64,000 nt of DNA, taken from assembly GCA_041649025.1 (NCBI GenBank), contig JBAZNY010000002.1, positions 70,694-134,693 on the forward strand, given 5' to 3'. Below the pieces are notes generated by a model. That model saw only the letters and a program-made list of their open reading frames with translations, ran no database searches and was not told where the DNA came from. The position numbers and the translations under genes were made by a program. Below, in pieces: positions 14,355 through 32,070 of this stretch; positions within the stretch are counted from its first letter, which is position 1, and every line of letters begins with the position of its first letter. Source of the DNA: Bdellovibrionales bacterium. Lineage in GTDB: Bacteria; Pseudomonadota; Alphaproteobacteria; UBA9219.

Positions 14355-14372
14355 AAACAAAGGGAATTGCAA

Positions 14373-15185: not shown

Positions 15186-15338
15186 CCCCCTTTAGATTAA
15201 GCCTTTTACAAGGCTCGACTCTGCCTTTAAGTCTGATATAAAGGCCGAACTCGATCTGCCCCCTGTTTGGATATAAGGAGCGAGCGCGTATTTTTTGCTT
15301 GATAGCCAAAAGCAGAAAATGTTTATTATCAATGGATT

Positions 15339-15432
15339 GGAGACGTGGCCGAGTGGCTGAAGGCGGCGGTTTGCTAAACCGTTATACGTTTGAAAAGATG
15401 TATCGAGGGTTCGAATCCCTCCGTCTCCGCCA
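15339..15432 (+). tRNA. tRNA-Ser (anticodon GCU)
   Basis: Acceptor ggagacg/cgtctcc, anticodon loop ttGCTaa, a long variable arm, T-arm gaggg-ttcgaat-ccctc and an encoded CCA. Confidence 0.9.
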
Positions 15433-15478
15433 ATTACCTTTTGTCCGACCCGGACACATGGGTAACAGAACGTACCGG

Positions 15479-16028
15479 CTACATAGGTGACACCCGCGAG
15501 CCAAACGGGTTGTCCAGGGGTTGCAAGATCTTCTCCTCCAAGTCGATATAACCTGGATCATAATCCATAAAACTGACAAGCCAAGTGCCTTCTTCGACCT
15601 CTTTGAGGCCGACAGCTTGTCCTGCGAACACGGTCGATAAATTGATTTTTTTTGCGGTGTAAACAGATCCGACCACAATGGGTAACGTTCGCGCTCAGGT
15701 CGTGGAGAGGATACACAAGTTCTGGAAGACCAGTATACACGCGTGGGGAAGGTTTATAAATCTCGGCCGGATACTTCATGCCCAAGGCTTCATGCGGACG
15801 GTCGTTGTTGTATTCTTCGATGAAGTCATCGAACTTGGCTTGCTGTTGGAAGATATTCTCTCCGGGTGGACGCGTAGCTTCTTTCTTCAGCGTCAGATGC
15901 ATGCGTTCATGGCGACCATTCTGTTGAGGATGTGCGCAAATACTGCTCATCCCGCGCTCGTGAGCCAACACAAAGCAAATATTTTTGGGCCGATCTCGCA
16001 ATTTCAGTGTTTGCGGCAATAATCTCAT
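15479..16028 (-). pseudogene. IS481-like DDE transposase remnant (N-terminally truncated and frameshifted)
   Basis: Two overlapping frames carry HPQQNGRHERMH (P-Q-x-N-G-x-x-E-R motif), NNDRPHEALGMKYP and the C-terminal LAGQAVGLKEVEEGTWLVSF. There is no N-terminal HTH or catalytic DD region. Confidence 0.75.
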
Positions 16029-16494
16029 GCGCAGATGTTAGCAGACGAAGCGTTTTGCCTTTTGCGGGCTGCTGGACAAGCGCGCTCGGTTCGAGCTTAA
16101 AAAAAGCTGCAAGGGCAGCAAGCGTTCCTGCGCGGCAACTATAGTTTGGATTGCTTTCCAGATTGCGAATAGTTTTTAAAGAAATTCCGGTTAGATCAGA
16201 TAGCCTTTCCTGCGAAATACCGCTGAGTTTGCGGTATCGCTTTATTTCAATGAAGCTTGGTTTGATTTTTCCGTCGTCTTTAATGACAAGCTCAGGAGCT
16301 AATTGATCTTGAGTATCTTTTTCGCGCTTATGTTGACGCGCAATGTCCGTAAGCATTGAAAAAGATTCTTCTTCACCAAAATCGCCGTTTTTAAAAACCT
16401 CCTTCTGGTTTTCAACACTGGCCCCTTGGTCCAACGGCTCTCGAAGCAAACTCCGGTTCCCCTGTACCATGACTTGCCACACCGCCCCGCGCAC
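15907..16494 (-). CDS. XRE-family HTH protein, apparently 3'-disrupted by the IS remnant (start uncertain)
   Basis: HTH segment LSGISQERLSDLTGISLKTIRNLESN. The ORF runs out of frame into the transposase fragment. It is paralogous in type to 28694-29344 and 30192-30857. Confidence 0.4.
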   Translation of the reverse strand: MRGAVWQVMVQGNRSLLREPLDQGASVENQKEVFKNGDFGEEESFSMLTDIARQHKREKDTQDQLAPELVIKDDGKIKPSFIEIKRYRKLSGISQERLSDLTGISLKTIRNLESNPNYSCRAGTLAALAAFFKLEPSALVQQPAKGKTLRLLTSAHEIIAANTEIARSAQKYLLCVGSRARDEQYLRTSSTEWSP

Positions 16495-16771
16495 AGATTA
16501 AAACCTTGCCAAAACCTTGCACCGCAGCATGCATACTCCATAACATACCTGCGTGTTTTTGGGAACGGGGGCAAACCAACCAAGAAAATCGCTATTTTCC
16601 ATGTATTCTTGATTGCTTCTTTACCTACTTCAAATAGGTCTATCGGTTAAAAACACAGCTTTCAGAAGAGAAAATCGGATGCACAGACATATCCAATAGC
16701 CGAACATCTTAATCTCCTACTAACTATAGGTTCGTCTTTTAAACTCCCATTTCAAGTTCTTTGCTCAGATT

Positions 16772-17245
16772 TTAATTCCACCCAATTTCACAGTATGGCT
16801 TCGGAGAAAGCGATCTGGCGATTCCTTCACGAACATAAGGAACCATGTTCTTGGGGAGCTTATTTACAGGGAAGAAGCGCAAGCCTCCGCATTTGTGAGG
16901 CTCCTTATTACAAATCTCGTTTTTCCATTTCTTGCAGACATAAAAGAGGTCGATTGACTCCCGATCAGGCGAAAAGCGATGAACAATACAAGAAAAGGCC
17001 ATGTCCTTCGGGCGAACAACAATGTCCGCTTCTTCAAAGGCTTCCCGAACCATCGCCGCCGTTGAGCTTTCTCCCCCATCAAGATGTCCCGCGATGACAC
17101 TATAGCTTCCGTCGCAGAAGCCTGTGTTCTGCCGAAGGAGAAGCAGAACCTCTTTTCCCTTAAGCAAAACCAAATGAACGGCAACAGGCATTTCAAAATG
17201 CTTAGACGGAGATTTCTTTTTGGCTTTGCCAACGATCTTACTCAT
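16772..17245 (-). CDS. Nudix hydrolase
   Basis: The Nudix box GHLDGGESSTAAMVREAFEEADI fits Gx5Ex7REuxEExxu. The start is taken at MSKIVGK, which makes an ATGA overlap with the upstream gene stop at 17242-17245. Confidence 0.8.
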   Translation of the reverse strand: MSKIVGKAKKKSPSKHFEMPVAVHLVLLKGKEVLLLLRQNTGFCDGSYSVIAGHLDGGESSTAAMVREAFEEADIVVRPKDMAFSCIVHRFSPDRESIDLFYVCKKWKNEICNKEPHKCGGLRFFPVNKLPKNMVPYVREGIARSLSPKPYCEIGWN

Positions 17246-18225
17246 GACTTCCCCCTGAACTTTTTCGCGAAGCTGTCCGTCGCTCTCACCGTCGCATCCA
17301 AAATGCCCGGATCGTTGTAAACGTGCGCAGCAACCTCCACCATGACCCATTGTGAAGAAGGCCAATTCTTGTGGAGTTCCCATGCCGTCGTCGCTGGGCA
17401 TACGGCATCGTAGCGTCCTTGAATAATTATGCCGGGAATGTTCTTCAGCTTTTTGGCCCCCTTAATAAGAGCACCTTCCTTCATAAATCCCGCGTTCAGG
17501 AAGTAATGGTTCTCAATAGCGGCGAAAGCTAACGCGAATTTATCTCTGGATTTATCGATAGTGTATTCCCCCTTCGGGATAAGGCACATCGCATCGCCTT
17601 CCCAGTCAGACCATGCCCGCGCAGCTTCAATTCTTGTTGCCCGCTTCTTTGAGGCCAATCTTTTCCGATAGGATTTCATAATGTCTTTTTGCTCGGCACG
17701 CGAAAGGATGCCGATAAAGCGATCCCAAGCTTCTGGAAACAGATAAGAAGCGCCCTCCTGATAAAACCACTTCAGCTCTTTCTTTCTGAGCATAAAGGTG
17801 CCTCTTAATATCAGACCGAGTACATTGCGCGGATACCGCTCAGCATAAGCCAAGGCAAGAGTGCTTCCCCATGAGCCTCCCAACATGATCCATCGATTAA
17901 TCCCCAAAAGATGGCGAAGCTTCTCAATATCGGCGACAAGATGCTGTGTTGTGTTTGCCTTCAAACATGTATGAGGGGTGCTGCGCCCACAGCCGCGTTG
18001 ATCAAATAGAATTATCCGATACTTCTTTGGATCAAATAAGCGCCGATGGTCTTTACCGCAGCCGCCGCCAGGCCCACCATGTATAAAGAGAGCTGGAATT
18101 CCGTTCGGATTGCCGCACGTCTCCCAATAAATCTTGTGTCCGTCCCCCACGGAAAGCATGCCGTGATCGTAGGGTTCGATGGAAGGAAAGAAGGAACGCA
18201 AAGATGGGGTTTTATGGGAATTCAT
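17242..18225 (-). CDS. prolyl-aminopeptidase-family (S33) alpha/beta hydrolase
   Basis: YWETCGNPNGIPALFIHGGPGGG, FDQRGCGRS and the nucleophile elbow GGSWGSTLALAYAERYP. The start is taken at MNSHKT, giving an ATGA overlap at 18222-18225. Confidence 0.8.
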   Translation of the reverse strand: MNSHKTPSLRSFFPSIEPYDHGMLSVGDGHKIYWETCGNPNGIPALFIHGGPGGGCGKDHRRLFDPKKYRIILFDQRGCGRSTPHTCLKANTTQHLVADIEKLRHLLGINRWIMLGGSWGSTLALAYAERYPRNVLGLILRGTFMLRKKELKWFYQEGASYLFPEAWDRFIGILSRAEQKDIMKSYRKRLASKKRATRIEAARAWSDWEGDAMCLIPKGEYTIDKSRDKFALAFAAIENHYFLNAGFMKEGALIKGAKKLKNIPGIIIQGRYDAVCPATTAWELHKNWPSSQWVMVEVAAHVYNDPGILDATVRATDSFAKKFRGKS

Positions 18226-18773
18226 GGCGATGGAGCATCCTTTTTTAAACCAATGTGAAAAGCGCGGGAGGGTTCTTTCATGAACTTTGAAACTTCTGGA
18301 TCGCTGTGACAACTATAACCGGCATCATATGTTTTTGCATGCCCCATGTTGCACCAGAAAGAAATCTGGCCTATCCGCATCATCGGATAAACCCTAAAGG
18401 GATGAGCTGACACGATTTCCAGCGTCCACTGGTGACAAGAGCCGGTGTGCCCAAGGTTTGCAGAAATCTGTAAAAACAAGCCGAGCCGCCCCAGAGAGCT
18501 GCGTCCGATTAAGGACATTGCGTATTCTTTGCTGCCCAGAGTCTCATGGGTATGTCCCAGATAGACCGTGTGAGGCTCTAGGACATAGCCCTCCTCAGGA
18601 ATTTTTATCTCTTTGAATCCATAAAGGCGTTCTTCGTCATATTCGGGAACAAGAAGCTTCGGCCCAAGCCTATAGTTATAGCTGTTGGGATTGATTTGAT
18701 CGTCGTTGAACGGAACAATCGTAATATCGCCCGCATCGACCATCTTCTTAATTTCTGTTCCCGTCAAAATCAT
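18222..18773 (-). CDS. dCTP deaminase/dUTPase-fold protein, divergent copy 1
   Basis: MILTGTEI, NPNSYNYRLG, GRSSLGRLGLFL and WTLEI. The Glu equivalent to E. coli Dcd E138 is retained, and DPGW is replaced by HTGS. Confidence 0.7.
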   Translation of the reverse strand: MILTGTEIKKMVDAGDITIVPFNDDQINPNSYNYRLGPKLLVPEYDEERLYGFKEIKIPEEGYVLEPHTVYLGHTHETLGSKEYAMSLIGRSSLGRLGLFLQISANLGHTGSCHQWTLEIVSAHPFRVYPMMRIGQISFWCNMGHAKTYDAGYSCHSDPEVSKFMKEPSRAFHIGLKKDAPSP

Positions 18774-18778
18774 ACTAG

Positions 18779-19870
18779 TTACGCAAAATCCACGGCAAGT
18801 TTTGTAAGTCTCTTATTAAGTATCGCCCTGTCAGGCCCCATTTTTTCTTTCAAATCTTGATAAGAGGAAACGTATGCCGCGATTAAGCCGCCAGCGCTTT
18901 TAGATGCCGTTCCGAAGCAGACCTTTTCCATCTGTTTTGATGCGCGCTCAAGATCGGCTGGCGTTGACATCGTGCGAGGCAATAGCTCGGCGATGCCCTG
19001 AAGATAACTGCGCAAAACCCGTCCGCGCCCGTCCGCAACGGGTTTTATTCCCGATCTCATAATGAAAGTGCTTGCAGCAACGGCATCCGCGATTTTCAAT
19101 TCGTCGTTGGTTTCAGTCGGCAGAAATTCTGCGATAGGAGCTGCATGAATGGGGGTCGGCAGCCCCGTCATTCTGCTGATTGCCGTCTCCACCCCGAAAG
19201 CCATTTCCACCCCAAGCTTTCGTTCACCAGCTTCGATGATGATAATATTTCCAATATCCCCGTACTCCTCGGAATATGGCCCTTTGATTGCAATGTTGCA
19301 GTTTCGCCCCGTTATGCCGTCAATGCCAAATTTATGCGTGTAGTAAACGGGTTCTTTCGTGTCGAACACCAAATACTGGTCGAGCCCAAGGTTTTTCCAG
19401 AAATCAACCAGATCAACGTCCGAGCTGGCGATATGAATCTTGATGGTGTTTGGGTTCAAACACAGCCGTTCCGTCAAAAACTGCCAGAAAAGTTTGGATA
19501 CTTTTTCGACATCATCATATTGCGACAGCGTCCCTGTGCTGAGAAACATGGATGACCAGTTGGGCACATAATTATTGTCTTGAATTCGCCTGGAGTTTTG
19601 CGTCCGCAAACAATCTTGAACCATAAACAGGCCGTTAGGAGGAATGCTCCCGCTAAGAAGAACCGGCTTCAAAGTGCTTATCGTTGAGCCGGTAAAAAGA
19701 ACAGAAGCATCATCCTTAGGAACTAATTTTCCGGCAGGAGCTTGTGAAAACCCATTCTCCAGAAAGAATGACTGAAAATGTGTCGAGAACTCGTTTCTCA
19801 ATCTGCGCAATATCGTTTTGTCGTCGTAATCCTCTATCGCGCGCGTTAGAAGGGAATTATAGTTTGTCAT
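18779..19870 (-). CDS. stand-alone AlaRS catalytic-core-like protein (class IIc aaRS paralogue)
   Basis: 363 aa, collinear by eye with the AlaRS N-terminal domain: FQSFFLENGF.. (vs [10 protein letters not shown]), LVPKDDASVLFTGSTI (vs [16 protein letters not shown]), QDCLRTQN (vs QKSVRAGG), and VEMAFGVETAISRMTG (vs [16 protein letters not shown] in the alaS of this window). No tRNA-recognition, editing or C-Ala domains. Confidence 0.6.
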   Translation of the reverse strand: MTNYNSLLTRAIEDYDDKTILRRLRNEFSTHFQSFFLENGFSQAPAGKLVPKDDASVLFTGSTISTLKPVLLSGSIPPNGLFMVQDCLRTQNSRRIQDNNYVPNWSSMFLSTGTLSQYDDVEKVSKLFWQFLTERLCLNPNTIKIHIASSDVDLVDFWKNLGLDQYLVFDTKEPVYYTHKFGIDGITGRNCNIAIKGPYSEEYGDIGNIIIIEAGERKLGVEMAFGVETAISRMTGLPTPIHAAPIAEFLPTETNDELKIADAVAASTFIMRSGIKPVADGRGRVLRSYLQGIAELLPRTMSTPADLERASKQMEKVCFGTASKSAGGLIAAYVSSYQDLKEKMGPDRAILNKRLTKLAVDFA

Positions 19871-19873
19871 AAT

Positions 19874-20419
19874 TTATGGCTCCGGCTTTTGTTGTGCACT
19901 CTTCTTAAAATCCCTAAATACTTCGGAAGACCTTGGCCCATTTGCCCCCTGATATTTGCCTTTGTAGAGAACGATCTCTCCCTTCGGAACCCAGAAGGAC
20001 ACTTGCCCGACGAGCATTCCTGGATAAAGCCGAATGGGCAGCGTTGCGTAGAGCTGAAACGACAGATTTCCGTGCATACCGAGATCGACGAGATCGGCTG
20101 TTACATGAACAAACAGCCCAAGCCGAGCGATGCTGGAACGCGCGTGAATAATTGGGACAAAGTAGTCGCTTCCAACTTTTTCCTGTGTATGTCCCACAAG
20201 AAAATCCCCCTTCTTCATCAAGATTCCCTTTTCATCTGCGATGATCTCTCGGAACTCCGGCGGATTTCGGGGATCGATAACTGGCGATGTGTACTGGATG
20301 AACTTATTGCCCAGCCGCAGATCATATGAATTTGTCGTCGCCCGTTCAGGATCGAAGGGGCAAATTTCAATCTTTCCCAAGTTCCACTGATTGATAATTT
20401 CTTTTCCGGTCAAAATCAT
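19874..20419 (-). CDS. dCTP deaminase-like protein, copy 2 (catalytic Glu replaced by Gln)
   Basis: MILTGKEI, TNSYDLRLGNKF, ARSSIARLGLFVHVTADLVDLG and RLYPGMLVGQVSF are close to canonical Dcd. The VLEF position reads SFQL. Confidence 0.7.
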   Translation of the reverse strand: MILTGKEIINQWNLGKIEICPFDPERATTNSYDLRLGNKFIQYTSPVIDPRNPPEFREIIADEKGILMKKGDFLVGHTQEKVGSDYFVPIIHARSSIARLGLFVHVTADLVDLGMHGNLSFQLYATLPIRLYPGMLVGQVSFWVPKGEIVLYKGKYQGANGPRSSEVFRDFKKSAQQKPEP

Positions 20420-20493
20420 CGTCGTCTCTATCGCTTGTTAAAATATACCCCGCAGTCGTTTGAATAACCGCAACTGCGGGGCCATTATTATAT

Positions 20494-21594
20494 TTATGGC
20501 GCAGGGCCTTCTTTTCTCTTCTTTTCCCATTGGAGCTTTTTCAGCCAAACGGGCTCATTCTGACGCGGCTTAAAGGAAACGCACAAAGGAACAAACTCAC
20601 CAAAATGATTCCCCTTGTTCTGATTGGTGCACGGAGTGTCCTTGGTCATGTCGTGGCCAAGAAGTTCATTCGTCGGCGTGTTGTTCCAATAGATTTTTTT
20701 GCTATCGTAAAAACCGATGCCGTAAGGAGTCCCAATCATGAGAGAGCAAAGACGGAGCATCCCATTCGGAAAAGCTAGAATACGATCGAACTGCTTGGCG
20801 GAGCAGTATCCATAATATTCCTTGTTTCTCTCAAATTCCTCCTTGACCGTAACGCACTGGGGCATCCGAACATCGATGCCCTTCTCTGTCTCTTTGTACT
20901 TTTGCACTTCTGCAAAGGCCTCCATGTATTCCTTGACGCTGGTATTGATATTATTTGACCAAACGTCGCGCGGAATTCCGCCCTTGAACAAATCATGCAT
21001 GTTGAGCGTCTTGACCCCAAGACCCTTCATAAATTCGATCATGTTGATAAGAGCGAGCTGTCCGTTTTCGGCTTGTGCAGTAAGCCCTTTGTGCACGCAG
21101 CTTGTTACGTGAACGTTGTAGCCCTTTTCGATGGCTTTCTTGATGTTTGAGGTACAGTTTTTGAAGCTACCTTTGCCACGGATGGCATCGTTCATTTCCT
21201 CCGTATAGCCGTCCAGGCTGAACGTAATTTCATCAAGCTCGCGGAAATAGGGATTGTCGAGCAAGGACGGATTGAACATCCCGTTCGTATCGATGCGAAC
21301 GTGCGAATACCCCATTTGCTTCGCTTCATGAATGAGTTCCGGCAGCTTCTTGTATAAAGTCGGCTCTCCTCCCATAAACGTCATCTTAATTGCGCCAAGT
21401 TCGCGCATATTTTTCATGAGATTTAACGCGTCGCCATATTCCATTTCCTTTTTCTGAAGCTGGAATGTGAGTTCAGGCTTGTACAAGCACTGCACGCACC
21501 TCAAATTGCAGGTGTCAGTGAGATACATAAAAACCTGTCCAATTTTATTGTTGAACGCCTGATAAAATTGTTCGTCAATTTCCATTTCGCTCAT
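20494..21594 (-). CDS. radical SAM enzyme with a Cys-rich C-terminal region
   Basis: CNLRCVQC (CX3CX2C) near the N-terminus, then MTFMGGEPTLY, VRIDTNGMF and ITFSLDG. There are additional C-terminal cysteines, possibly an auxiliary cluster domain. Confidence 0.75.
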   Translation of the reverse strand: MSEMEIDEQFYQAFNNKIGQVFMYLTDTCNLRCVQCLYKPELTFQLQKKEMEYGDALNLMKNMRELGAIKMTFMGGEPTLYKKLPELIHEAKQMGYSHVRIDTNGMFNPSLLDNPYFRELDEITFSLDGYTEEMNDAIRGKGSFKNCTSNIKKAIEKGYNVHVTSCVHKGLTAQAENGQLALINMIEFMKGLGVKTLNMHDLFKGGIPRDVWSNNINTSVKEYMEAFAEVQKYKETEKGIDVRMPQCVTVKEEFERNKEYYGYCSAKQFDRILAFPNGMLRLCSLMIGTPYGIGFYDSKKIYWNNTPTNELLGHDMTKDTPCTNQNKGNHFGEFVPLCVSFKPRQNEPVWLKKLQWEKKRKEGPAP

Positions 21595-21721
21595 ATTCGC
21601 CCCCTAAAAATTTATTTCCAAAATGAGAAGCGCTCATTTTGTGTTTGAAAATTAGTGGGTGCCGGTTTTACCCGCATCCCCCGTTCGGGGGTTTTTGATG
21701 TCTCTTCGATAAAAAGAGGTC

Positions 21722-23830
21722 TTAGTTTTTATCTAACGACGAAGTGTTAGATGACGAGTGCGATGCCGGCCTTGTCGGATCGCAGGAAGGCGCGCGTGCT
21801 TTGATTGCTTTCAGGTCGCCAACATCATCGAAGAAACGTTGAAGCCAAATAAGCATCCCTATTCTATTTTCTCTGATGCTTACGTTGTCATCGTTGATGC
21901 GAACGTTTTCAAAAAACTCCGTAACAGTTGTCTCGGTCTCGCTTAAGCGTTGTAGCTTTGCTCCGTAGTCCAGCACAGGAAATTGCAGCGTCATCTTCGC
22001 CAACATCCCGCACATGCGCACATCATAATCCGAAGCCAAGAGCTTGCTGCTTGTGGCATACTCTTTGGTAGCCCAGTCCTTCGGCAATATCTTGCGAACG
22101 CGCGTAGCTACCGCCAATAATTTTGCCCCTTCCGGAGTTTTCATAAACTCCCGAATGGCAGTGCCGCGCTCAAACAAACGGCTTACGTTGTTGGTCTTGT
22201 CGTTATTTAATACCGATGAAATCACATCTTCGGGCAACCCGCGTTCCAGGAACGTTGACCTGATCCGATCCCGCATAAAATCGTCAATCCCTTCAGGAAA
22301 CTTTGCACTGTAAAGTTCCGAAGAAAGAGCAATACCTTCGGAAAGATCATAATCAATATTGTTTTCCAAAAGAATTCTGACCATCCCCAATGCCGTCCGC
22401 CTTAATGAAAATGGGTCGCGGCTGGAGCTAGGTATTTCTCCGATGCTGAAAAAACCGGTCAATGTGTCGATCTTATCTGCCAGCGCTATGGTTGCCGCCG
22501 TCTTCTCTTTCGGGCAAGCATCGCTTGGGCCGAGAGGCGCATAATGGCTTCTTATTGCTTCGGCAACGATTGGGGTTTCCCCCTGCTGCAAAGCACATCT
22601 ATATCCGACAATCCCTTGCAATTCTGGAAATTCATAAACAAGCGATGTGGTGAGATCGGCTTTTGATAAATTGGCCGCATGCTGAACTAAAGAAACGTCA
22701 GCCCCTAGCTTCCGCGCAATTGCCTTTGACAAAGCGGCAACGCGCTGCGTTTTGTCATACATGCTGCCCAATTTGTTATGGAACTTGAGCGTTTGAAGAT
22801 TCTGGACTCTATCGATAAGCGGAACGCTGACATCCTTTGACCAGAAGAAAAGTGCGTCCGACAAACGCGCAGAAATTACTTTCTCATTGCCGACAACGAC
22901 CGTTTTTCCTCCATCCTCTGTTACAGTTCCTGCGGCAAATATAAAGTTGGAAGAAAGGCCTCCATTCTCCTTCTTTAACGAGAAATACTTTTGGTTTGCC
23001 TTCATTGAGGTTGTGATAACCTCCGGAGGAACGTTCAAGAATCTTTCTTCAAACTGCCCAAGCAAAACAATGGGCCATTCTGTCAATCCGGCAACTTCCT
23101 CCAGAAGATCATTATCTTCATTAAGATGCAGTCCCTGTGCTTCTGCTATCCTTTGCGCATCGTTATAAATAATCGATTTGCGTTCGTTTCTATCTATTAC
23201 AACATGTCTCAATGCCAATTCATTTTTGTATTGTGCAAAATCTGTAATACAAAACGACTCTGGATTTAAGAACCTGTGTCCCACAGATTGATTTGTGTAT
23301 TCGAGATTAGTGCCGTTTCCGAGGTCAAAAGCTCCTTCTACGGCCTTGCCGTCAAAAACAACCGAGATGCTTTTCAGAGGACGCGCCCAACGGAACGTAG
23401 TTGATCCCCAACGCATGGATTTCTTCCATGACATCTCCCTTATCGACTTATCGATAACGACTGCCAAAACCTGCTTTGTTTCTCGTTCCTGGACTACCTT
23501 GTTCAAAACATAACATTCCCCTTTTGAAGTGTTCTTTGTTGACAGGTTTGTCTTTTGAGACCCCGTTGCTTTCAAAAAAGCGGAGATAATTTTCTCATTG
23601 CTATTTGTTTTTGGCCCTAATCTTTCAATATTTCTCGCTGGCAAGACGGTTGGAATTCCTTCGATTGCCACAACAAGCCGCCGTGGAGTCGATCCCCGAT
23701 GTAACTCTCCCATGGGGACGCCCGCATCCGAAAGTTCTTTACACAAAATGCTGGCAAATTGTTCTTCCGCTGCTGCTTGCACGTTTGCAGGAAGTTCTTC
23801 CGATAAAAGCTCAACGAGTAATTCCGACAT
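21722..23830 (-). CDS. glyS: glycine--tRNA ligase beta subunit
   Basis: MSELLVELLSEELPAN at the N-terminus, about 700 aa, directly downstream of glyQ (18 bp gap). The start is taken at the internal Met of the ORF. Confidence 0.9.
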   Translation of the reverse strand: MSELLVELLSEELPANVQAAAEEQFASILCKELSDAGVPMGELHRGSTPRRLVVAIEGIPTVLPARNIERLGPKTNSNEKIISAFLKATGSQKTNLSTKNTSKGECYVLNKVVQERETKQVLAVVIDKSIREMSWKKSMRWGSTTFRWARPLKSISVVFDGKAVEGAFDLGNGTNLEYTNQSVGHRFLNPESFCITDFAQYKNELALRHVVIDRNERKSIIYNDAQRIAEAQGLHLNEDNDLLEEVAGLTEWPIVLLGQFEERFLNVPPEVITTSMKANQKYFSLKKENGGLSSNFIFAAGTVTEDGGKTVVVGNEKVISARLSDALFFWSKDVSVPLIDRVQNLQTLKFHNKLGSMYDKTQRVAALSKAIARKLGADVSLVQHAANLSKADLTTSLVYEFPELQGIVGYRCALQQGETPIVAEAIRSHYAPLGPSDACPKEKTAATIALADKIDTLTGFFSIGEIPSSSRDPFSLRRTALGMVRILLENNIDYDLSEGIALSSELYSAKFPEGIDDFMRDRIRSTFLERGLPEDVISSVLNNDKTNNVSRLFERGTAIREFMKTPEGAKLLAVATRVRKILPKDWATKEYATSSKLLASDYDVRMCGMLAKMTLQFPVLDYGAKLQRLSETETTVTEFFENVRINDDNVSIRENRIGMLIWLQRFFDDVGDLKAIKARAPSCDPTRPASHSSSNTSSLDKN

Positions 23831-23848
23831 AATTGTTCTCAACCAAAG

Positions 23849-24715: not shown

Positions 24716-24807
24716 TGCAATTCGTCCTAAAGTTGTTTTTTAATGAATGTGTCTGAATTGATCTGAGGCCACATCCCCCTTTTGGGGGTTTCTGTGCCAA
24801 AAACGCT

Positions 24808-26835
24808 TCAAAGCGCGCTAGTTAATGACAGCAGAGGAAACACCGGTTTTTTCAAGCGAGCCCTTAGTTCATTGAAGTGTTTTCCAGCAAGATCAAACCC
24901 CCCTTTGCTCAGCATCGCGGAACTAATAAAATAGCCATCCCCTTTAACATTCTGCTCATCAACTGCTTTAGCGATGTCATCATGCGTAAGGAGACCAGCA
25001 ACACAGATATTTCCGCCAAAGTGTTGGTTAGACGCGGCAATTATGCGTAAATTACGAACTTTTTCATCAGGACGAAGCAGCTCCGTTGCTGCGTCTAAAA
25101 AAGGCTTCATGATAGAGCTTGTGACAAGAACGGGTTGTTGCAATTCATACTGCCGTTGGTGCGCAGCAATACGCCGGAAAATTGAGAAATCCACATCGTC
25201 ATTCATGAGGATTCCCCATGTTCCGACCTTCTTATCAACCAGCGTTCGCGCCCGCTTCAGTGACTTATAGGCAGAAAGCTCCACATCTCTTTGCATTCCC
25301 CTCGGGTCTCGCACAGCGACGACCATCTTGTTGGCTTGAAGATCATTTAATAGCTGAAGTGCTTCGGTTCGTGACCGTGGAGTTTTCCCATTAACTTCGA
25401 TGATTGTTGATCCCGCTTCGATGCCAGCTTGATCGGCGTTTGATCCTTCAATGACATCTTCTATCGTTGGCGTAAGCCCAGTTCGATTTAGCAATCCTAC
25501 CGTTACAATTATGGCTGTTTTGACAGATGGGCGTAGAGCGGTGACAAATGAATCAATCCGTGCCAATTCTTCTGGTGACAAAAGCAGTTTTGGATTGTGA
25601 TGAAGCGTGCCCGCCGGAAGAGCAACTCGTATATATGACGTCGGCTCATACTTGTCCGCATAACGAATTGTATGCTCGATGTCCTCTAATGGTATCCAAC
25701 TCGTGGCTGCAACAAGAGAAACATCAAACTGAATTCCCAAATCGTGCATTAGCGGTAATGATTGAATAGCAACTTCATGTTGTTCAGGTCTGCCCCCAGG
25801 CATAAGTATTTTTCTGTAGGCAGGGTCCGCGCTGTTCAGCGAGACTTGGAACAGGACTTGCTGGCGAAGCTGATCGTCTTCTGCAATTGCCTTAAGAAGC
25901 TTCTGTTTTAGGTTTCCGCCATGTGTCAGGATGGGGACTTGCGCCTTAGGATCAGCGGCGCATATAAGCTTCAGAACCTTTAGAAATTCAGGATGTTCCG
26001 TTGGCTCCCAATCCATCAGCGCATAACGTAACGGCGGATGCCCAAAACGAGTATTTGCGTCGTAGGAATTTAGAGCGTCCTTAATGTCATCAAGCGATCT
26101 CGCCCATCCGCGCGGGTATCTGACCGTCGAAAAACCTCGATCAACATAACAGAACCGGCATCCCTGATTGCAGTTATTCCATACGAAAGGAATTGCTGCA
26201 TTTTGAGCCGACCCAATAGGAACTTGAAGGGCTTGGGCATCAACGACTTTTGCCACACCTGGTTCAGAAAAATCAAATGTATTCAAAAGCCACTTCCGTA
26301 CCACAGCCTCAAGCGTATCGTTATTATGAACACTCGGTAATGGAATTGCCGGAGAAGGAAATGTTGCCCCGCCAAGAATATGTTGTACCGCCGCTACGCG
26401 CCCATTTAGCACACCCCCTTCATTGAGAAGTTCCACATCGTGCAATAGGGCAAAAGAAATATCTCCCCAATTGATTTGGGCTTTACCTGGATTAGATGCA
26501 GCTCCTGCTTCGAAAGAGCCTTTTCCTAAACGCATATAGGCATCGCATAACAATACTATGGGAGATTCAAACCCAAAAAGTTGACCCTGAACGCTTTGCA
26601 TTTCTTGTTGAGGGATAGGTTTGCTGAGATCGTTAGTACTATTTGAAACTCGAATACGATCAGGAACTAGGATATTGCCGTGAGCATCAAAAAACTGCGA
26701 AAACAGTATGACTGCTTGTGCCAAACCAAGAAAACGAGATTCTTTCGACCCAGCATCGTCAAGAAGACCATATTTCTGAATTTCGATAGCCTTTATCGTT
26801 GAAGAAAATTGTTTTGGCAGCGCGTTATTTACCAT
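24808..26835 (-). CDS. radical SAM / PDZ / DUF512-like multidomain protein with an unassigned roughly 230 aa N-terminal domain
   Basis: CNQGCRFC (CX3CX2C) at about residue 232. A PDZ-like segment IEDVIEGSNADQAGIEAGSTIIEVNGK. The C-terminal FGGNICVAGLLTHDDI resembles DUF512. Confidence 0.6.
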   Translation of the reverse strand: MVNNALPKQFSSTIKAIEIQKYGLLDDAGSKESRFLGLAQAVILFSQFFDAHGNILVPDRIRVSNSTNDLSKPIPQQEMQSVQGQLFGFESPIVLLCDAYMRLGKGSFEAGAASNPGKAQINWGDISFALLHDVELLNEGGVLNGRVAAVQHILGGATFPSPAIPLPSVHNNDTLEAVVRKWLLNTFDFSEPGVAKVVDAQALQVPIGSAQNAAIPFVWNNCNQGCRFCYVDRGFSTVRYPRGWARSLDDIKDALNSYDANTRFGHPPLRYALMDWEPTEHPEFLKVLKLICAADPKAQVPILTHGGNLKQKLLKAIAEDDQLRQQVLFQVSLNSADPAYRKILMPGGRPEQHEVAIQSLPLMHDLGIQFDVSLVAATSWIPLEDIEHTIRYADKYEPTSYIRVALPAGTLHHNPKLLLSPEELARIDSFVTALRPSVKTAIIVTVGLLNRTGLTPTIEDVIEGSNADQAGIEAGSTIIEVNGKTPRSRTEALQLLNDLQANKMVVAVRDPRGMQRDVELSAYKSLKRARTLVDKKVGTWGILMNDDVDFSIFRRIAAHQRQYELQQPVLVTSSIMKPFLDAATELLRPDEKVRNLRIIAASNQHFGGNICVAGLLTHDDIAKAVDEQNVKGDGYFISSAMLSKGGFDLAGKHFNELRARLKKPVFPLLSLTSAL

Positions 26836-26901
26836 GTTGAAATTCCAAAAATGAAATGCTTTAAAAACAATCCGCTCATGTAACCCTTATAAAGAACGTG
26901 T

Positions 26902-27339
26902 TTATAACCCCCTTTGGGGGGTATAAGTTTCAACAAAACAGCGCGTCCCCTCTATTGCATAAGGGGAGATCAAGCCAAGCGTACATGCAATCGAAACGGC
27001 GTTTGCCTTGTTAACCGCGTTAAGCTTGTTCGATATTTTCCGGTGATAATCTTTGACTGTCTCTTCAGATAGACAAACAATGTCCGATATTTCTTTCCGT
27101 GTTTTTCCCCTTGCCGTCCAAGTCAGGATTTCTGCTTCTCTCGCTGTTAGAGGTTCGATGAGGAAGGACTCTGATGAATTCGGTGTGGCATTAGGATAAG
27201 CCAAATATAGCGTGGCCAGATGGGTGCGAACACGAACGCTGGAGCCGTTTTTGCGCAGCGCTGTATGACCAGAGCGGATTTCCTCTACTGGAAACCTTCC
27301 CCCGGACACGTTGCTCAAATTTTCAAAAAGCTCGTCCAT
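26902..27339 (-). CDS. LuxR/FixJ-type HTH transcriptional regulator
   Basis: The C-terminal LTAREAEILTWTARGKTRKEISDIVCLSEETVKDYHRKISNKLNAVNKANAV is a GerE/LuxR HTH. The N-terminal roughly 70 aa is unassigned. Confidence 0.8.
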   Translation of the reverse strand: MDELFENLSNVSGGRFPVEEIRSGHTALRKNGSSVRVRTHLATLYLAYPNATPNSSESFLIEPLTAREAEILTWTARGKTRKEISDIVCLSEETVKDYHRKISNKLNAVNKANAVSIACTLGLISPYAIEGTRCFVETYTPQRGL

Positions 27340-27416
27340 TTATCTTCTTTTGCAAATAGATTAATTTAGTATTCCCGTTGTTAGACAGGTGAATTAATAA
27401 GTTATTGCGTTCTTTC

Positions 27417-27755
27417 CTAAGCAAACAACGCCTTTATCTGTTGGTTTTCCATATTCAGTGTATGTATTTTCAGTGCTTTGGAAGGAGTCATTGTTTTCCG
27501 ATATCTTCCATCATTATTTTTCATTAACCGCTGCTCGACATCAGCCATCGCGTTCGCCATGTGCCACAGCTCGTCGATTTCTTCTTTTGAAAAACCGAGG
27601 AGCAGTAAATCCTGCGGCAAACAGCCCCCATTCTTATGCGTCAGGTCGATAATGACGGTCGCCATGCGTTGATACGGAGCAAATTTGCTATCAAACTCGG
27701 TACTGATATGATCGATTGCTTGCGGAATGAGGCTTGTTTGTAATGCGGATTTCAT
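27417..27755 (-). CDS. hypothetical protein (third gene of a 3-gene overlapping set)
   Basis: 112 aa ORF. Its start overlaps the upstream stop by 4 bp (27752-27755). No recognised motif. Confidence 0.45.
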   Translation of the reverse strand: MKSALQTSLIPQAIDHISTEFDSKFAPYQRMATVIIDLTHKNGGCLPQDLLLLGFSKEEIDELWHMANAMADVEQRLMKNNDGRYRKTMTPSKALKIHTLNMENQQIKALFA

Positions 27756-28189
27756 TGGGGAGTCTCCGCATTCGTGTCTTCGATTTCTTCATCGAGATAT
27801 TTCAGCACCAGATCAGCAACTTTTCCTTGCTTTGCCGTAGCGTAGAGTTGCCACTGCATCCGGCGCGATTTTCGCGTTTGGAGCCGATCATAAAGTTGGA
27901 TGAGGGATTCCTTGTCTTGGGGAATTTGTGTCGAGCCTTTCGTTTTACGTTCTTCAATATATGTCGCAATTGCGTCGTCGATTTTCGCGGCGTCCTCGTC
28001 ATCAACAAAATTGATGGTTCCTGAAGGAAATGCTTGGAAAATATTGAGATTACAGAACTCATCCATGCGCTTGGCAAATTTCACAACCCTTTTTGCCATA
28101 TCCGGTGTTTTGCCTGCCTTCCCGTCGGCAATAACGGTTTGAAAAGCCAGCATAAGGCAAAGGCGCTGATAGAGGATATTCGACGTCAT
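27752..28189 (-). CDS. hypothetical protein (second gene of a 3-gene overlapping set)
   Basis: 145 aa ORF with 4 bp overlaps at both ends. No recognised motif. Confidence 0.45.
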   Translation of the reverse strand: MTSNILYQRLCLMLAFQTVIADGKAGKTPDMAKRVVKFAKRMDEFCNLNIFQAFPSGTINFVDDEDAAKIDDAIATYIEERKTKGSTQIPQDKESLIQLYDRLQTRKSRRMQWQLYATAKQGKVADLVLKYLDEEIEDTNAETPQ

Positions 28190-28473
28190 TTGGATTTCTC
28201 CTCGTTCGCCTTTGCTTCCTTGAATTTGGCAAGAAGGCGCGAAAATGAGCCAATCGCCGGACGGTCGGTCGGCGGCTCAATGAAATTCGCGGAACTCAGT
28301 ATGCTAAGGCCCGTGTGCGAGAAAGCCTGAAGAAACGCTTCACGGGCTGCTGAAGAGTCGAAAGTTCCCTGAAGAATGACGCTGTAGCGCAACTGAGGGT
28401 TTAACGAAGGAGCGACACGCGATGCTGCATCTTCTTTATGTAACGAGAAGGCTACTGTGTTGTCCCTCATCAT
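28186..28473 (-). CDS. hypothetical protein (first gene of a 3-gene overlapping set)
   Basis: 95 aa ORF with a 4 bp overlap to the downstream gene. No recognised motif. Confidence 0.4.
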   Translation of the reverse strand: MMRDNTVAFSLHKEDAASRVAPSLNPQLRYSVILQGTFDSSAAREAFLQAFSHTGLSILSSANFIEPPTDRPAIGSFSRLLAKFKEAKANEEKSK

Positions 28474-28693
28474 ATAAACCCTGAAATAGCGTTTAATTAA
28501 TGAGGCTAGTGTCTGCCGCCCAAGATAGAAGTTCCACGTTCCATCTCGTTGTTTTTCGTCAATTTCGGCTGGAAGAATTGACGAAAAACACTGTTTGTAT
28601 TTATTCGTCGTTTGTGAGGACTGTTCTTGTGAAGAAAAGAATGAAAACGCGGCAAGTAGATTTGCCGCGTTGGGATGCTTTATCAGAATATGG

Positions 28694-29344
28694 TTAGAAA
28701 CTTATCGCCGACGCTTCATTCCAGAGAGACAGAAAGTCTTTTCGTTCGCCTTGAGCGACCCAGGCGATATCGTAAATAACCGCCATGTAATTCAATGCGC
28801 CGTCCGTCAGAACATGGGCGTACTTATTCCCGTAGATAAACATCGAAACTGCGCCGCAGGGGCGATGATCAACCATCCGGCAAGGAAAGAAAGGCTTCTG
28901 AAACGAAGGCTTCGCGATGTCAGACATCAAACACTTGATATCAACAACGGCGCGCAGGGCTTCCAACCGATCCATATTGCTGAGAAAATCGACACCGCAT
29001 TTCCGTGTTAGAATCTTGTCATCCTTCGTAAATACGAGGATTTCTTTCTGTTCCTGATCGATGGTCTTGCAAATATCTTCAAAGAACAGATCGCAACTAT
29101 CGACCCCTCTCAACGTACACACGCCGAAATCGCGGCGGCGAACGCCCTCGCCTTCCGTAAATTCAAGCCCATTGTCCTGAAGCGTCGTGCAAATATCTTG
29201 CAAGGTAGTAATGCGCGGAATTTTTCCAAGTTCCATCGTCCTGATGGTCGAAATGGAAACGCAAGACTTCTCTGCCAGGTCTTCTTGAGACCAGTCGAGC
29301 AAGGCTCTTGCCGCCTTGATTTGTCCTGCACTGACTGGACGCAT
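28694..29344 (-). CDS. XRE-family HTH regulator with an unassigned C-terminal domain
   Basis: N-terminus IKAARALLDWSQEDLAEKSCVSISTIRTMELGK...GLEFTEGEGVRRR. Paralogue of 30192-30857. Confidence 0.7.
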   Translation of the reverse strand: MRPVSAGQIKAARALLDWSQEDLAEKSCVSISTIRTMELGKIPRITTLQDICTTLQDNGLEFTEGEGVRRRDFGVCTLRGVDSCDLFFEDICKTIDQEQKEILVFTKDDKILTRKCGVDFLSNMDRLEALRAVVDIKCLMSDIAKPSFQKPFFPCRMVDHRPCGAVSMFIYGNKYAHVLTDGALNYMAVIYDIAWVAQGERKDFLSLWNEASAISF

Positions 29345-29373
29345 ATTATAAATCCTTCAAAAAAATTCAAAAA

Positions 29374-29727
29374 TCAGTTCATCGCCATTCGAGGATCGAG
29401 ATCAACGAGATAAGCAACGGCTTTGTCAAAATCATTCCGACGAATCTTTTGAATGTCGTCGGTTCTAAAATAATCTTCTACAAGGGAACGAATAACGACT
29501 TCATTGAACTTGTGGGTATATGCAACATAGTCAATAAGCGCGCGAACCGAAGATAATTCCAAACCATTCAGAGTTGGTTCATCGGAACACAAGCCTTCCA
29601 GTGCAGCGTGCAACGCCTTGATAGCAGGATGAAAAACATCTTCTTTCTGGGCAGACACCGACAGCTCGGATTCCTTATTATCGTTGGAAGGGCCTTCTGA
29701 AGAATTGGTGTTGTGCGTTTTGCTCAT
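29374..29727 (-). CDS. hypothetical protein
   Basis: I prefer the internal start MSKTHNT of the 227 aa ORF. The upstream part of that ORF overlaps a better-looking 61 aa ORF in another frame. Confidence 0.35.
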   Translation of the reverse strand: MSKTHNTNSSEGPSNDNKESELSVSAQKEDVFHPAIKALHAALEGLCSDEPTLNGLELSSVRALIDYVAYTHKFNEVVIRSLVEDYFRTDDIQKIRRNDFDKAVAYLVDLDPRMAMN

Positions 29728-29732
29728 GATGA

Positions 29733-29918
29733 TTATCTGGCAACCGCCGTCATGGGCAGAAATTCGGTTGTATCGGGATGGGATAAAAGCGAGGCCCAAC
29801 GTTTTTCCAAGGGAATATTTGTATTGGCAACAATGCCTTGGTAGCGCTCCATACGCTCGATCAAATCTTGAACGCCAAATTCTCCATGGCGCATCATAAA
29901 ATCGTGATAATCCGGCAT
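29733..29918 (-). CDS. hypothetical small protein
   Basis: 61 aa ORF (MPDYHDFMMRHGEFGVQDLIERMERYQ...) that ends 6 bp before the MSKTHNT start. Confidence 0.3.
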   Translation of the reverse strand: MPDYHDFMMRHGEFGVQDLIERMERYQGIVANTNIPLEKRWASLLSHPDTTEFLPMTAVAR

Positions 29919-30191
29919 AATAAGGCTCCGTAATAATTATTTTTGTCTTCCAATATTGGGCAATATATATGGCGGTCTCACTGAAAGCAATTAGAAATTG
30001 TGTTTCATATCGTCCCGCGCTTGATCTCATATCAACTTCAATGGTTGGCATGCCCACAGTAGTTAACAGAAGTTAATTATAAAACTACCTTTTTTGGGTA
30101 GGAACATGCCTTTTGGAGGTAAAAAACATATTGTTCTTGAGTTTTTCAAAAAATAATTTTATAACAAGCGCCACTTGATGTGGGGTATATA

Positions 30192-30857
30192 ATGCCAACA
30201 GGAAAACAAATACGAGCTGCACGCGTTCTGGCTGGGTGGGACATAAAAGACCTCGCCCCACGCGCGGGACTGAGTGTAACCGCCGTTCAGAACATTGAAA
30301 CGGGCGTAGTTCCCAAAACATCTACAATTGAAAGAATCGTCAGAGCATTTTCTGGTGCAGGAATTGAGTTCACTGACAATGAAGGTGTGCGTCGTCGCCC
30401 TCAAGGTGTGGAGATATTTGAAGGCCAAGAGCGTTTCGAGGAATTTACAAATTTTGTTTATGAGCAAATCAAAGAGCACGGTGGACATATTTGTTTGAGC
30501 GTGACTGACGAGCGATTGTTTTCAAAGTATCGCACGAATACCATAGACTACTATGAAAGAATGAAGGATTTGTTCAATCGAGGAGTGATTAAATCCTTTC
30601 GCATATTGGCTAACAAGAGCAACTTTGCAACGAAGTATACTTATAGCACCTACAAGTGGCAGCCTGAAACAACAATGGCACCAACGGCTTTTTATACGTT
30701 TGCCGATTACCTTGCACTTATATCCTTTGAACATAGCAATCCCCCATACGTCCTAGTTATTCAATCAGCGGCTTTGGCTGATTCCTATCGTCGCGCTTTT
30801 GAGATCGCTTGGGCGGCGGGGAAAGAACCTCCGAAAACAAAGGGGGGTAAATCTTGA
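30192..30857 (+). CDS. XRE-family HTH regulator with an unassigned C-terminal domain
   Basis: MPTGKQIRAARVLAGWDIKDLAPRAGLSVTAVQNIETG...GIEFTDNEGVRRR. The stop overlaps the start of the downstream GNAT gene. Confidence 0.7.
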   Translation: MPTGKQIRAARVLAGWDIKDLAPRAGLSVTAVQNIETGVVPKTSTIERIVRAFSGAGIEFTDNEGVRRRPQGVEIFEGQERFEEFTNFVYEQIKEHGGHICLSVTDERLFSKYRTNTIDYYERMKDLFNRGVIKSFRILANKSNFATKYTYSTYKWQPETTMAPTAFYTFADYLALISFEHSNPPYVLVIQSAALADSYRRAFEIAWAAGKEPPKTKGGKS

Positions 30858-31531
30858 CCTGTGTCCAAATCCAATCAGTAGGCGCAGCCTCTTTGCCACA
30901 ACAATTTGAGCTTAGGCCTTTAACCGGGAATGACACTTCGGCTTATTTTGAGCGGCGTGATCATATTTTGAAAATCGGCGAAGGTCATTTTTTCAGCGAT
31001 TCATACGAGCGAGAAGATAAATTAATAACTGAACAGAAACGACGCGATTGGTGCACAGAAAAGCACGATCATTGTATTTTGGGCGCATTTGCCGACCGGA
31101 ATCTTGTTGGTTTTGTTATGATTACGCAATACGGCCCGCCAGCGGACAAAACCGTTGAGTGGGAGGCCGCTTGGGTTGATCCTCGCTATCGCGGCACCGG
31201 ACTTACAAAAGCACTTTATGAAGAAGTGGAAAAGTGGACCGTCTCTGAGGGATACCGCTTTGTTAAATCGTTTATCCGAGAAGATAACAAACGTTGGTTA
31301 GACATTCGCCGCAGGACGGGGTTTGTCGAAATCGGCACCAAATATGTTTCTCACTGGGCGGATAACACAGACGGAAACATGGTTATCCTCATACGTGATC
31401 TTTCTGTTCCAAAACCTCAGCAACAGAAATCGCTCCATTTTCTTGAAGACACCATTTCTTCTTTGGAGGGTCTTCCTGCTGTTTCGCACGGCATAGTAAG
31501 AGCGCGAAAGGTGCAGGCGTTAGGTCTATAG
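30854..31531 (+). CDS. GNAT-family N-acetyltransferase
   Basis: LVGFVMITQY...AAWVDPRYRGTGLTKALYEEVEKW is an acetyl-CoA-binding (R/Q-x-x-G-x-G/A type) motif. The TTG start overlaps the upstream stop (TTGA). Confidence 0.65.
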   Translation: MTCVQIQSVGAASLPQQFELRPLTGNDTSAYFERRDHILKIGEGHFFSDSYEREDKLITEQKRRDWCTEKHDHCILGAFADRNLVGFVMITQYGPPADKTVEWEAAWVDPRYRGTGLTKALYEEVEKWTVSEGYRFVKSFIREDNKRWLDIRRRTGFVEIGTKYVSHWADNTDGNMVILIRDLSVPKPQQQKSLHFLEDTISSLEGLPAVSHGIVRARKVQALGL

Positions 31532-31743
31532 CGGATCACATATTATTTTTCAGAAGACTGAAGAAGAAATTTGTTGTAGTCTGTTCGTAACTCAGGGGGA
31601 GAGAAAAAAATCGAGACCTCAAGTTTTAGGGATTTGAATTCTCGGTTTTCAGGAAATCCCTTTTGGGGATATAAGTGGGGGCATAAGAGGAAATTATGAT
31701 CGGTGATTGTTTAGCAATATCAATCTAATACAAGCCGCGTCCT

Positions 31744-31762
31744 AATCCCTCCGTCTCCGCCA
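31744..31762 (+). repeat. direct repeat of the tRNA-Ser 3' end (att-like, exact 19/19)
   Basis: aatccctccgtctccgcca is identical to 15414-15432 inside tRNA-Ser. Confidence 0.9.
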
Positions 31763-31801
31763 TTCTCATCCGACCCGCCGATTGGCGGGTCGGATGAGAA
31801 T
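31762..31801. repeat. perfect 18-bp-stem hairpin abutting the att-like repeat
   Basis: attctcatccgacccgcc-gatt-ggcgggtcggatgagaat, read directly. Confidence 0.85.
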
Positions 31802-31939
31802 GGAGAAAGCGGGATTCGAACCCGGCAAAAGGGTTCGATGGCAAGCCATTCAAATAGCGTTCGCGGAAGCTCCGCGAACGCACAAAAACAAAAATTTATG
31901 GCGCAGACAGGGCGAGCGGCGCGACAGCGCCGAGAAGCC

Positions 31940-31958
31940 AATCCCTCCGTCTTCGCCA
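31940..31958 (+). repeat. second direct repeat of the tRNA-Ser 3' end (18/19)
   Basis: aatccctccgtcttcgcca differs at one position from 15414-15432. Confidence 0.8.
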
Positions 31959-32070
31959 TAAATATAAGGGACGCTTGGCTCTTTTTTATTATGACATAGT
32001 GGGTTTCGAAACCGACAAAAGGGTTGATGGCAATCTTAGCTTAGAGGTAAGACAATCACGTTAAAGTTTT

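Follow-up and report, generated by a model that had tools for sequence, protein, structure and literature searches.

A probable decayed integrative element at a tRNA-Ser(GCU) gene, carrying a rare cassette of nucleotide- and aminoacyl-type genes

We analysed a 64 kb stretch of DNA from a Bdellovibrionales bacterium (GenBank assembly GCA_041649025.1, contig JBAZNY010000002.1), referred to below as the window; all coordinates are positions within it. Our main finding concerns the 16.3 kb block at 15433-31743, which lies between a tRNA-Ser(GCU) gene and a second copy of the 3' end of that gene (copy 2), and which is probably what remains of a site-specific integrative element inserted at the tRNA 3' end, in the form of a decayed island resembling the cis-mobilizable elements (CIMEs). 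An earlier sequence-only reading had interpreted the region as a tRNA-linked island, and this is supported by the intact tRNA, the repeats of its 3' end, a shift in composition and cargo genes that recur elsewhere. It is the recurrence of the cargo cassette in other contexts that supports the island most strongly.

Repeats of the tRNA-Ser(GCU) 3' end

The following features define the two ends of the block, attL and attR denoting its left and right attachment (att) sites.

15339-15432, plus strand: intact tRNA-Ser(GCU) (ARAGORN; Rfam tRNA, 60.6 bits)
15414-15432, plus strand: attL core, the last 19 nt of tRNA-Ser (19-mer search)
31744-31762, plus strand: attR core, copy 2 (19 of 19 nt; 22 of 24 when counted from 31739)
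31763-31800, directly after copy 2: perfect 17 bp hairpin (repeat search)
31802-31823: inverted tRNA-Ser-3'-like segment, matching the tRNA 3' end at 19 of 22 nt
31940-32025, plus strand: second attR-type unit, comprising copy 3 (31940-31958, 18 of 19 nt) and a flank homologous to that of copy 2
31993-32025: degenerate inverted T-arm-like segment in the copy 3 unit

The terminal 19-mer of the tRNA, AATCCCTCCGTCTCCGCCA, occurs exactly at 15414 and 31744 and with one mismatch at 31940, each time on the plus strand, so that ARAGORN, Rfam and the 19-mer search agree with the tRNA gene and the repeats first reported from the letters alone. The worry expressed at that time, that such a 19-mer might recur by chance, was checked within the 64 kb: no further match with up to three mismatches exists on either strand, and chance recurrence was rejected given an expectation of 0.02 from shuffled sequences.

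The attR copies lie about 16.3 kb from tRNA-Ser, in direct orientation. The flank following copy 2 begins (31763 onwards) with TTCTCATCCGACCC and that following copy 3 (31959 onwards) with TAAATATAAGGG, and the homology between 31744-31939 and 31940-32070 exceeds the 19-mer, with an alignment score of 62.5 vs 24.8 +/- 5.4 for shuffled sequences. Since this homology reaches past the 19-mer, the third repeat is a tandem duplicate of the attR junction, which may be left over from accretion or may have arisen by simple duplication. To the right of the real tRNA-Ser, the DNA is unrelated to the flanks of either copy, as is expected if attL abuts DNA of the element or of an insertion sequence (IS). 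Copy 2, the hairpin and the inverted segment together form a long imperfect palindrome that extends to 31823. Long imperfect palindromes at 31763-31823 and 31894-31963 take in the attR cores, a weaker inverted copy of the tRNA-Ser 3' end lies at approximately 31897-31918, and Rfam returned only spurious miRNA-type matches on the right-end palindromes.

Cargo genes, their recurrence and their codon usage

The genes of the block are listed below, together with a phosphoribosyltransferase (PRTase) gene located just outside the repeats; ORF stands for open reading frame, HTH for helix-turn-helix, AlaRS for alanyl-tRNA synthetase and GC3 for GC content at third codon positions.

15479-15935, minus strand: IS481-family transposase remnant, C-terminal ~130 aa, frameshifted, within 46 bp of the tRNA end
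15907-16494, minus strand: XRE/HipB-like HTH gene (Pfam HTH_3/HTH_19; NCBIfam HipB-like, weak)
16772-17401, minus strand: NUDIX (Pfam/NCBIfam)
17242-18312, minus strand: prolyl-aminopeptidase-family (Pip-like) alpha/beta hydrolase (397 bits, cut-off 260)
18222-18773, minus strand: DCD-like protein (Pfam/NCBIfam)
18779-19870, minus strand: AlaRS-related protein, 363 aa (Pfam/NCBIfam, alanine-tRNA-ligase-related)
19874-20419, minus strand: dCTP deaminase, DCD (108 bits, cut-off 93)
20494-21594, minus strand: radical SAM, rSAM366 (Pfam/NCBIfam)
21722-23842, minus strand: glyS (NCBIfam, 655 bits, cut-off 300)
23849-24715, minus strand: glyQ (NCBIfam, 457 bits, cut-off 369)
24808-26835, minus strand: radical-SAM/PDZ/DUF512 gene (Pfam; GC3 0.389, the lowest in the block)
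26902-27339, minus strand: LuxR/GerE regulator (Pfam, PHROGs)
27417-28473, minus strand: three orphan ORFs
28694-29344, minus strand: XRE216 (Pfam, PHROGs)
29374-30057, minus strand: orf227
30180-30857, plus strand: XRE225, divergent (Pfam, PHROGs)
30854-31531, plus strand: GNAT acetyltransferase, in the same orientation as XRE225 (Pfam Acetyltransf_1)
32071-32724, plus strand: PyrE-like PRTase (NCBIfam pyrE_Therm, 144 bits vs a cut-off of 150)

The six genes at 16772-21594, whose start codons are uncertain, constitute a cassette of which we found no description in the literature, and the family of its AlaRS-related protein is small, with 43 matches among 5.8 billion proteins. We compared the homologue-bearing contigs L166/L167 (AlaRS-related protein 61% identical) and L168-L170 (55%), the latter being JGI Ga0123354_10000010 and an 'Alphaproteobacteria bacterium' metagenome-assembled genome (MAG). 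The genes occur in the order XRE(-), orphans, XRE, orphans, (LuxR), radical SAM, DCD, AlaRS-related, DCD, hydrolase, NUDIX, and from 30857 down to 16772 the window is colinear with L166 and L168-L170 except for an insert at 21616-26900, with amino acid identities of 59-89% (59-83% for L168-L170); the six-gene core is found at 8243-13122 in L166 and at 8280-13123 in L168. Beyond the cassette, these contigs share nothing with the window. In L166 the cassette is placed between restriction enzymes and Nmad2/3, NucS_C and a phage tail gene, while in L168-L170 genes for Phage_integrase, HTH_17, Relaxase and MobC/NikA lie 6-10 kb to one side and Vsr, Dcm and HATPase genes on the opposite side. The L168-L170 element is therefore like the window in the order from XRE and orphans through radical SAM, DCD, AlaRS-related, DCD and hydrolase to NUDIX, and unlike it in having the integrase, HTH_17, relaxase, MobC and Vsr/Dcm genes as well as one for a cyclodipeptide synthase, and in being without LuxR, glyQS and the radical-SAM/PDZ gene; neither a tRNA nor informative direct repeats were found within the 21 kb examined. 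The cyclodipeptide synthase (PF16715; aminoacyl-tRNA-dependent) is encoded beside the cassette XRE gene, at 6004-6741 in both L169 and L170. Because the same cassette recurs amid different neighbours in L166/L167 and L168-L170, gene order indicates that the cargo is a horizontally mobile unit, which elsewhere resides on an integrase-bearing mobilizable element. The regulatory/orphan module (26902-30857) likewise has colinear homologues, in L151, L152, L166 and L168.

Composition sets the block apart from its surroundings. Its GC content is 0.462, vs 0.510 in the left and 0.527 in the right flank, and mean GC3 is 0.49 in the block and 0.58 in the flanks (Mann-Whitney p = 2e-4), in agreement with the AT-richness that had been judged by eye; the GC of the cassette is low in all three hosts (0.43-0.47). 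Codon usage was scored as a log-likelihood ratio between models built from 26 flank and 13 cassette genes, each tested gene being left out of its own model. Of the 17 block genes, 16 had a negative, that is, cassette-like, ratio, the exception being the radical SAM gene rSAM366 at about zero (+0.004); genes outside the training set were negative too (glyS -0.123, glyQ -0.090, radical-SAM/PDZ -0.170). By contrast, 23 of the 26 flank genes were core-like (positive), alaS (+0.107) and rpoA (+0.152) among them. On the left, usage switches sharply from coaX (+0.145) to the first island gene (-0.109); on the right, GNAT (-0.106) is followed by the PRTase (-0.032, an intermediate value) and the next gene (+0.062). 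The shift in composition and codon usage sets in at the end of the tRNA, and its other limit lies no more than ~0.3-1 kb from the distal repeats.

Within the insert at 21616-26900, glyS and glyQ, both above their NCBIfam cut-offs, form a bona fide heterotetrameric glycyl-tRNA synthetase (GlyRS) operon inside the island array. Together with the radical-SAM/PDZ gene they are missing from the L166 and L168 copies, in which radical SAM comes directly after the regulators, and all three are for this reason regarded as lineage-specific insertions. A sister species (L163/L164) encodes a GlyQ with 90% amino acid and 78% nucleotide identity, in the order orf145-orf112-LuxR-glyQ and without the radical-SAM/PDZ gene; window positions 24792-26933 are absent there (L163 1197-1256), an indel between the two species. 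The GC of the L163/L164 contig is 0.45 and the GC3 of sister core genes ~0.6. According to this comparison, glyQS entered the cassette before the species split, and the radical-SAM/PDZ gene represents a recent indel within the island, due to a later gain or loss. GlyQ homologues of lower identity (70-77%) are found in ordinary, unrelated contexts. In addition, an ENA contig (L165) has at 382-1638 a 418 aa GlyQ-like ORF with two overlapping matches to window positions 24165-24666, and this ORF appears to contain an internal partial duplication.

At the left end, the IS481-like remnant and the transposon-adjacent XRE gene had been noticed from the sequence alone. The former is borne out by NCBIfam NF033577 (IS481), which matches ORF 15558-16028 with 56 bits over C-terminal model positions 224-283 of 284 only, and by Pfam rve_3, and a frameshifted transposase tail is contained in ORF 15479-15676; the inner end of the remnant would be at ~15935, from where transposase similarity starts. 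The XRE/HipB-like gene is probably truncated, because its 3' end runs into IS-derived DNA. Three XRE paralogues had been proposed: the XRE genes are present, but only XRE216 and XRE225 are true paralogues (30% identity), the left-end gene being unrelated to both. The GNAT gene and the orphan ORFs were recovered as described (Pfam, PHROGs), and the GNAT slot is variable, with a methyltransferase or different acetyltransferases at this place in other genomes. Short hairpins of the form CCCCC-N4-GGGGG occur at 21676-21692, 24775-24788, 26910-26929 and 31658-31677, i.e. after glyS, the radical-SAM/PDZ gene and LuxR, and just before attR copy 2; for two of them a terminator is predicted, on the strand opposite that of the genes. 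The sister species has one such hairpin after LuxR (L163 ~1262-1280), and the L166/L168 cassette copies have none.

Both flanks are ordinary chromosome, with rbfA, the genuine alaS (6540-9278), a SpoU methylase, a pantothenate-pathway gene and coaX to the left and transporters, a hydrogenase-like sensor kinase, hydF, rpoA and chemotaxis genes to the right. Homologues of the PRTase that are 81-84% identical are found in L151, L152 and L162, with no tRNA nearby; in these contigs (L151 10001-19763, L152 2187-10644, L162 279-4408) the PRTase is followed by HAD, usually MFS, and two acetyltransferase-like genes, after which the XRE/orphan module comes next in L151 and L152, while L162 stops before the module. 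Further to the left in the window, a tRNA-Gln gene (1798-1872) is followed by low-GC DNA (0.38-0.49) up to 4200, with HAD-like ORFs at 2055-2621 and 3289-4194 and GC3 down to 0.29, and synteny with the sister species begins only at 4201. A tRNA-Gln-linked island with repeats was rejected, as the 3' end of this tRNA is not repeated; 1798-4200 may be a second variable region.

Probable decay of the element, age of the insertion and alternative explanations

The sequence-only reading saw no tyrosine or serine recombinase and considered the island probably immobilised. Among the ORFs of the block that were scanned with Pfam, down to a length of 78 aa, none matches a recombinase, relaxase or excisionase. 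When the integrase, relaxase, MobC and HTH_17 proteins of the related element were used as phmmer queries against all six translated frames of the window, no match was better than E = 0.05, and the integrase reached only E >= 2. Immobilisation would fit these results, although with both att sites in place mobilisation in trans could still occur. Most of what identifies a tRNA-linked island is present, namely an intact tRNA, att repeats, distinct composition and codon usage and cargo known from other contexts, whereas the integrase is missing. As in CIMEs, attL and attR are both kept and the genes for integration and transfer are absent. The integrase together with a relaxase or oriT that would mark an integrative and mobilizable element (IME) was not found in the window by Pfam or phmmer. 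There are no phage structural, replication or lysis genes, PHROGs matching only HTH regulators and the acetyltransferase; IMG/VR holds no relatives of the AlaRS-related gene and PLSDB matches only genuine alaS; and PADLOC gave no full-length defence match, but a weak match of the radical-SAM core to pVip (67 bits) and marginal hits. By these profile and database searches, the block is neither an IME nor a prophage nor a known defence system.

Comparison with known systems places the block close to CIMEs, since it likewise has no integrase, excisionase or relaxase and carries tandem att-type units at its distal end, and a cassette related to its own forms part of an element that encodes an integrase, a relaxase and MobC. 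It differs in its host, CIMEs having been defined in Firmicutes whereas we are dealing with an uncultured proteobacterium-like MAG, and in holding a complete aminoacyl-tRNA synthetase operon. It also shares with classical tRNA-linked genomic and pathogenicity islands, which have P4-type tyrosine integrases, the insertion at a tRNA 3' end with a 19 bp repeat reaching from the T-loop to CCA, the atypical GC and codon usage, an IS fragment and accessory cargo under its own regulators. Unlike those islands, it has no integrase next to the tRNA, and its cargo is a rare nucleotide/aminoacyl-type cassette rather than virulence or resistance genes.

We envisage that an element inserted into the 3' end of tRNA-Ser(GCU). 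Its integration would have restored an intact tRNA at attL, while the original 3' end, now displaced, would have become attR; an additional 196 bp scrap prolongs the block to 31939. The cargo would have arrived as one mobile cassette, to which this lineage added the glyQS operon and later the radical-SAM/PDZ gene. The integrase, excisionase and mobilisation genes would subsequently have been lost while both att cores were kept. The junctions were presumably made by a tyrosine recombinase, and the mobility genes presumably deleted.

Several observations weigh against this scenario. Neither an integrase nor an integrase remnant was detected by Pfam or phmmer in the block or the window, and no empty site was observed: CoaX- and PRTase-based searches returned no contig joining the tRNA to the right flank, and the PRTase homologues mentioned above were rejected as empty sites, given their other contexts and lack of a tRNA. 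Copy 3 is not independent evidence and no clear separate integration scar. The block carries seemingly housekeeping genes, glyQS and dcd, which the sequence-only reading did not weigh any more than it did the prolyl-aminopeptidase-family gene, even if its island holds up overall, and should the island glyQS be the only copy in the genome, the block cannot be dispensable. In L151 and L152, PRTase homologues are found no more than 5 kb from the same XRE/orphan module, and this recurrent linkage crosses the proposed right boundary. The PRTase may be a relic of an older related element with a decayed outer att site; it may equally be a core gene beside which such modules settle.

A final difficulty is the age of the element. 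Our CoaX-based scan of GTDB genomes and JGI metagenomes found one close relative only, with 84% amino acid identity in CoaX and synteny with window positions 4201-15432. Two contigs represent it, one of 31 kb and one of 67 kb; they do not differ over the 11 kb compared, and both end at the final A of the tRNA CCA. This shared end counts in favour of an integrative element and fits heterogeneity or a repeat starting at the att boundary; it is not an empty site. The sister tRNA-Ser differs at five positions, one of them within the 19-mer, and both attR copies have the allele of the window. As orf145-orf112-LuxR-glyQ is present in the sister at ~78% nucleotide identity, a divergence like that of core genes, the element family is old in the clade and not a recent arrival. 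A neutral 19 bp scar of that age would, by our estimate, carry ~2-4 changes, which also counts against the scenario, and an exact 19/19 repeat in an old element requires either later re-integration or selection on the surrounding palindrome. The simplest reconciliation, we infer, is a family that stayed active, with present junctions dating from a re-integration at a later time and a recent loss of the mobility genes; the last integration would then be recent relative to the age of the family in the clade. Alternatively, the palindrome that holds copy 2 may be under selection.

Among the alternative explanations, a hot-spot mosaic is doubtful but deserves serious consideration. On this view, a recombination-prone tRNA locus would have gained or lost its parts one by one (the cassette, the IS/XRE left end, the PRTase right end, glyQS and the radical-SAM/PDZ gene), the repeats marking only the latest event. 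This would account for cassette copies elsewhere having neither glyQS nor the radical-SAM/PDZ gene, for the lack of the latter in the sister, for the IS481 remnant at the left end, for the duplicated attR units, and for a PRTase with intermediate codon usage that is linked to the XRE module in other genomes. Yet codon usage is uniform across the block, inserted genes included, and the cassette is otherwise perfectly colinear with its relatives. This account is largely compatible with a decayed integrative element and differs from it mainly in the number of events.

We consider it unlikely that the block is a functional CIME, which an integrase and excisionase acting in trans could excise or move, or which could undergo accretion with an incoming element, as in the CIME concept (PMC5704250). 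The attR core is exact at 19 of 19 positions though the family predates the sister split, the right end has the tandem att-type structure typical of accretion, and the reproducible break of the sister contigs at the tRNA suggests population heterogeneity, all of which would be in keeping with such activity. However, the 64 kb contain no cognate integrase, and excision would be lethal if glyQS encoded the sole GlyRS.

That no insertion took place at all is very unlikely. The block would then be ancestral chromosome, and the tRNA-3'-like fragments would stem from local duplication of the tRNA end together with its terminator palindrome, from chance, or from functional motifs; housekeeping-type genes, conservation of the block in the sister species, the position of the fragments in palindromes and in both orientations and the lack of an integrase could all be read in this way. 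It is contradicted by the sharp compositional and codon boundary that coincides with the tRNA end, by the presence of the same cassette in unrelated contexts, including a mobile element, by identity that ends abruptly at the T-loop as in att cores, and by the low chance expectation given above. Delivery by IS481, as a composite transposon or in a one-ended event, instead of by site-specific recombination is suggested by the remnant close to the tRNA end but is highly improbable, and the composite transposon was rejected, as there is a single truncated IS copy with none at the other end, the repeats are a tRNA 3' end and not IS inverted repeats or a short target duplication, and relatives of the cassette are without this IS.

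A possible function for the cargo

PDB sequence searches of the cargo gave only generic radical-SAM, HTH or AlaRS matches, and a PDB profile search aligned the aminoacylation region of the AlaRS-related protein and the start of its tRNA-recognition domain. An hhalign comparison of this family with the AlaRS of the window showed conservation of the motif-2 Arg and of the Asn of '..WNLVF..', whereas an invariant Glu stands in place of the Asp of 'DTGMGLER'. In ascamycin biosynthesis, AcmF, a truncated AlaRS-like protein with D232E, transfers alanine from Ala-tRNA to a nucleoside, and its partners are the AlaRS homologue AcmD and the alpha/beta hydrolase AcmE (PMC12945691). The cassette is similar in that a truncated AlaRS-related protein with aminoacylation and tRNA-recognition regions shows the same Asp-to-Glu change, that an aminopeptidase-type alpha/beta hydrolase belongs to the operon and that a full aminoacyl-tRNA synthetase is found in the cluster. 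It is dissimilar in that the Asn lost in AcmF, which we compared by its description and not its sequence, is kept, that the radical SAM, the two DCD-family proteins and the NUDIX protein are without acm counterparts, and that the synthetase is GlyRS and not AlaRS. We take the parallel as a lead, with no claim of membership.

Following this lead, we tentatively propose, while regarding it as a rather improbable guess, that the cargo could encode a mobile, uncharacterised aminoacyl-tRNA-dependent nucleoside or nucleotide pathway, for an antibiotic or an anti-phage effector, with the captured glyQS as a dedicated supplier of Gly-tRNA or a self-resistant GlyRS. The radical SAM, the two DCD-family enzymes and the NUDIX protein would make a modified pyrimidine nucleotide, to which the truncated AlaRS-like enzyme would transfer an amino acid from charged tRNA, and the Pip-like hydrolase would take off the aminoacyl group. 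If true, this would be a horizontally mobile, island-borne aminoacyl-tRNA synthetase with a role outside housekeeping.

As an island, the block is of an ordinary kind, a textbook example of an element decayed at its tRNA integration site; it is the cargo that is unusual. The value of the locus lies in the context that it provides, in which a very rare six-gene cassette is shown to be a horizontally mobile unit and, in one clade, a full GlyRS operon with island-type codon usage is embedded in it. If glyQS is a second copy, this points to a natural-product or defence function linked to an aminoacyl-tRNA synthetase; if it is the only copy, an essential gene is located in formerly mobile DNA, which would explain the fixation of the island.

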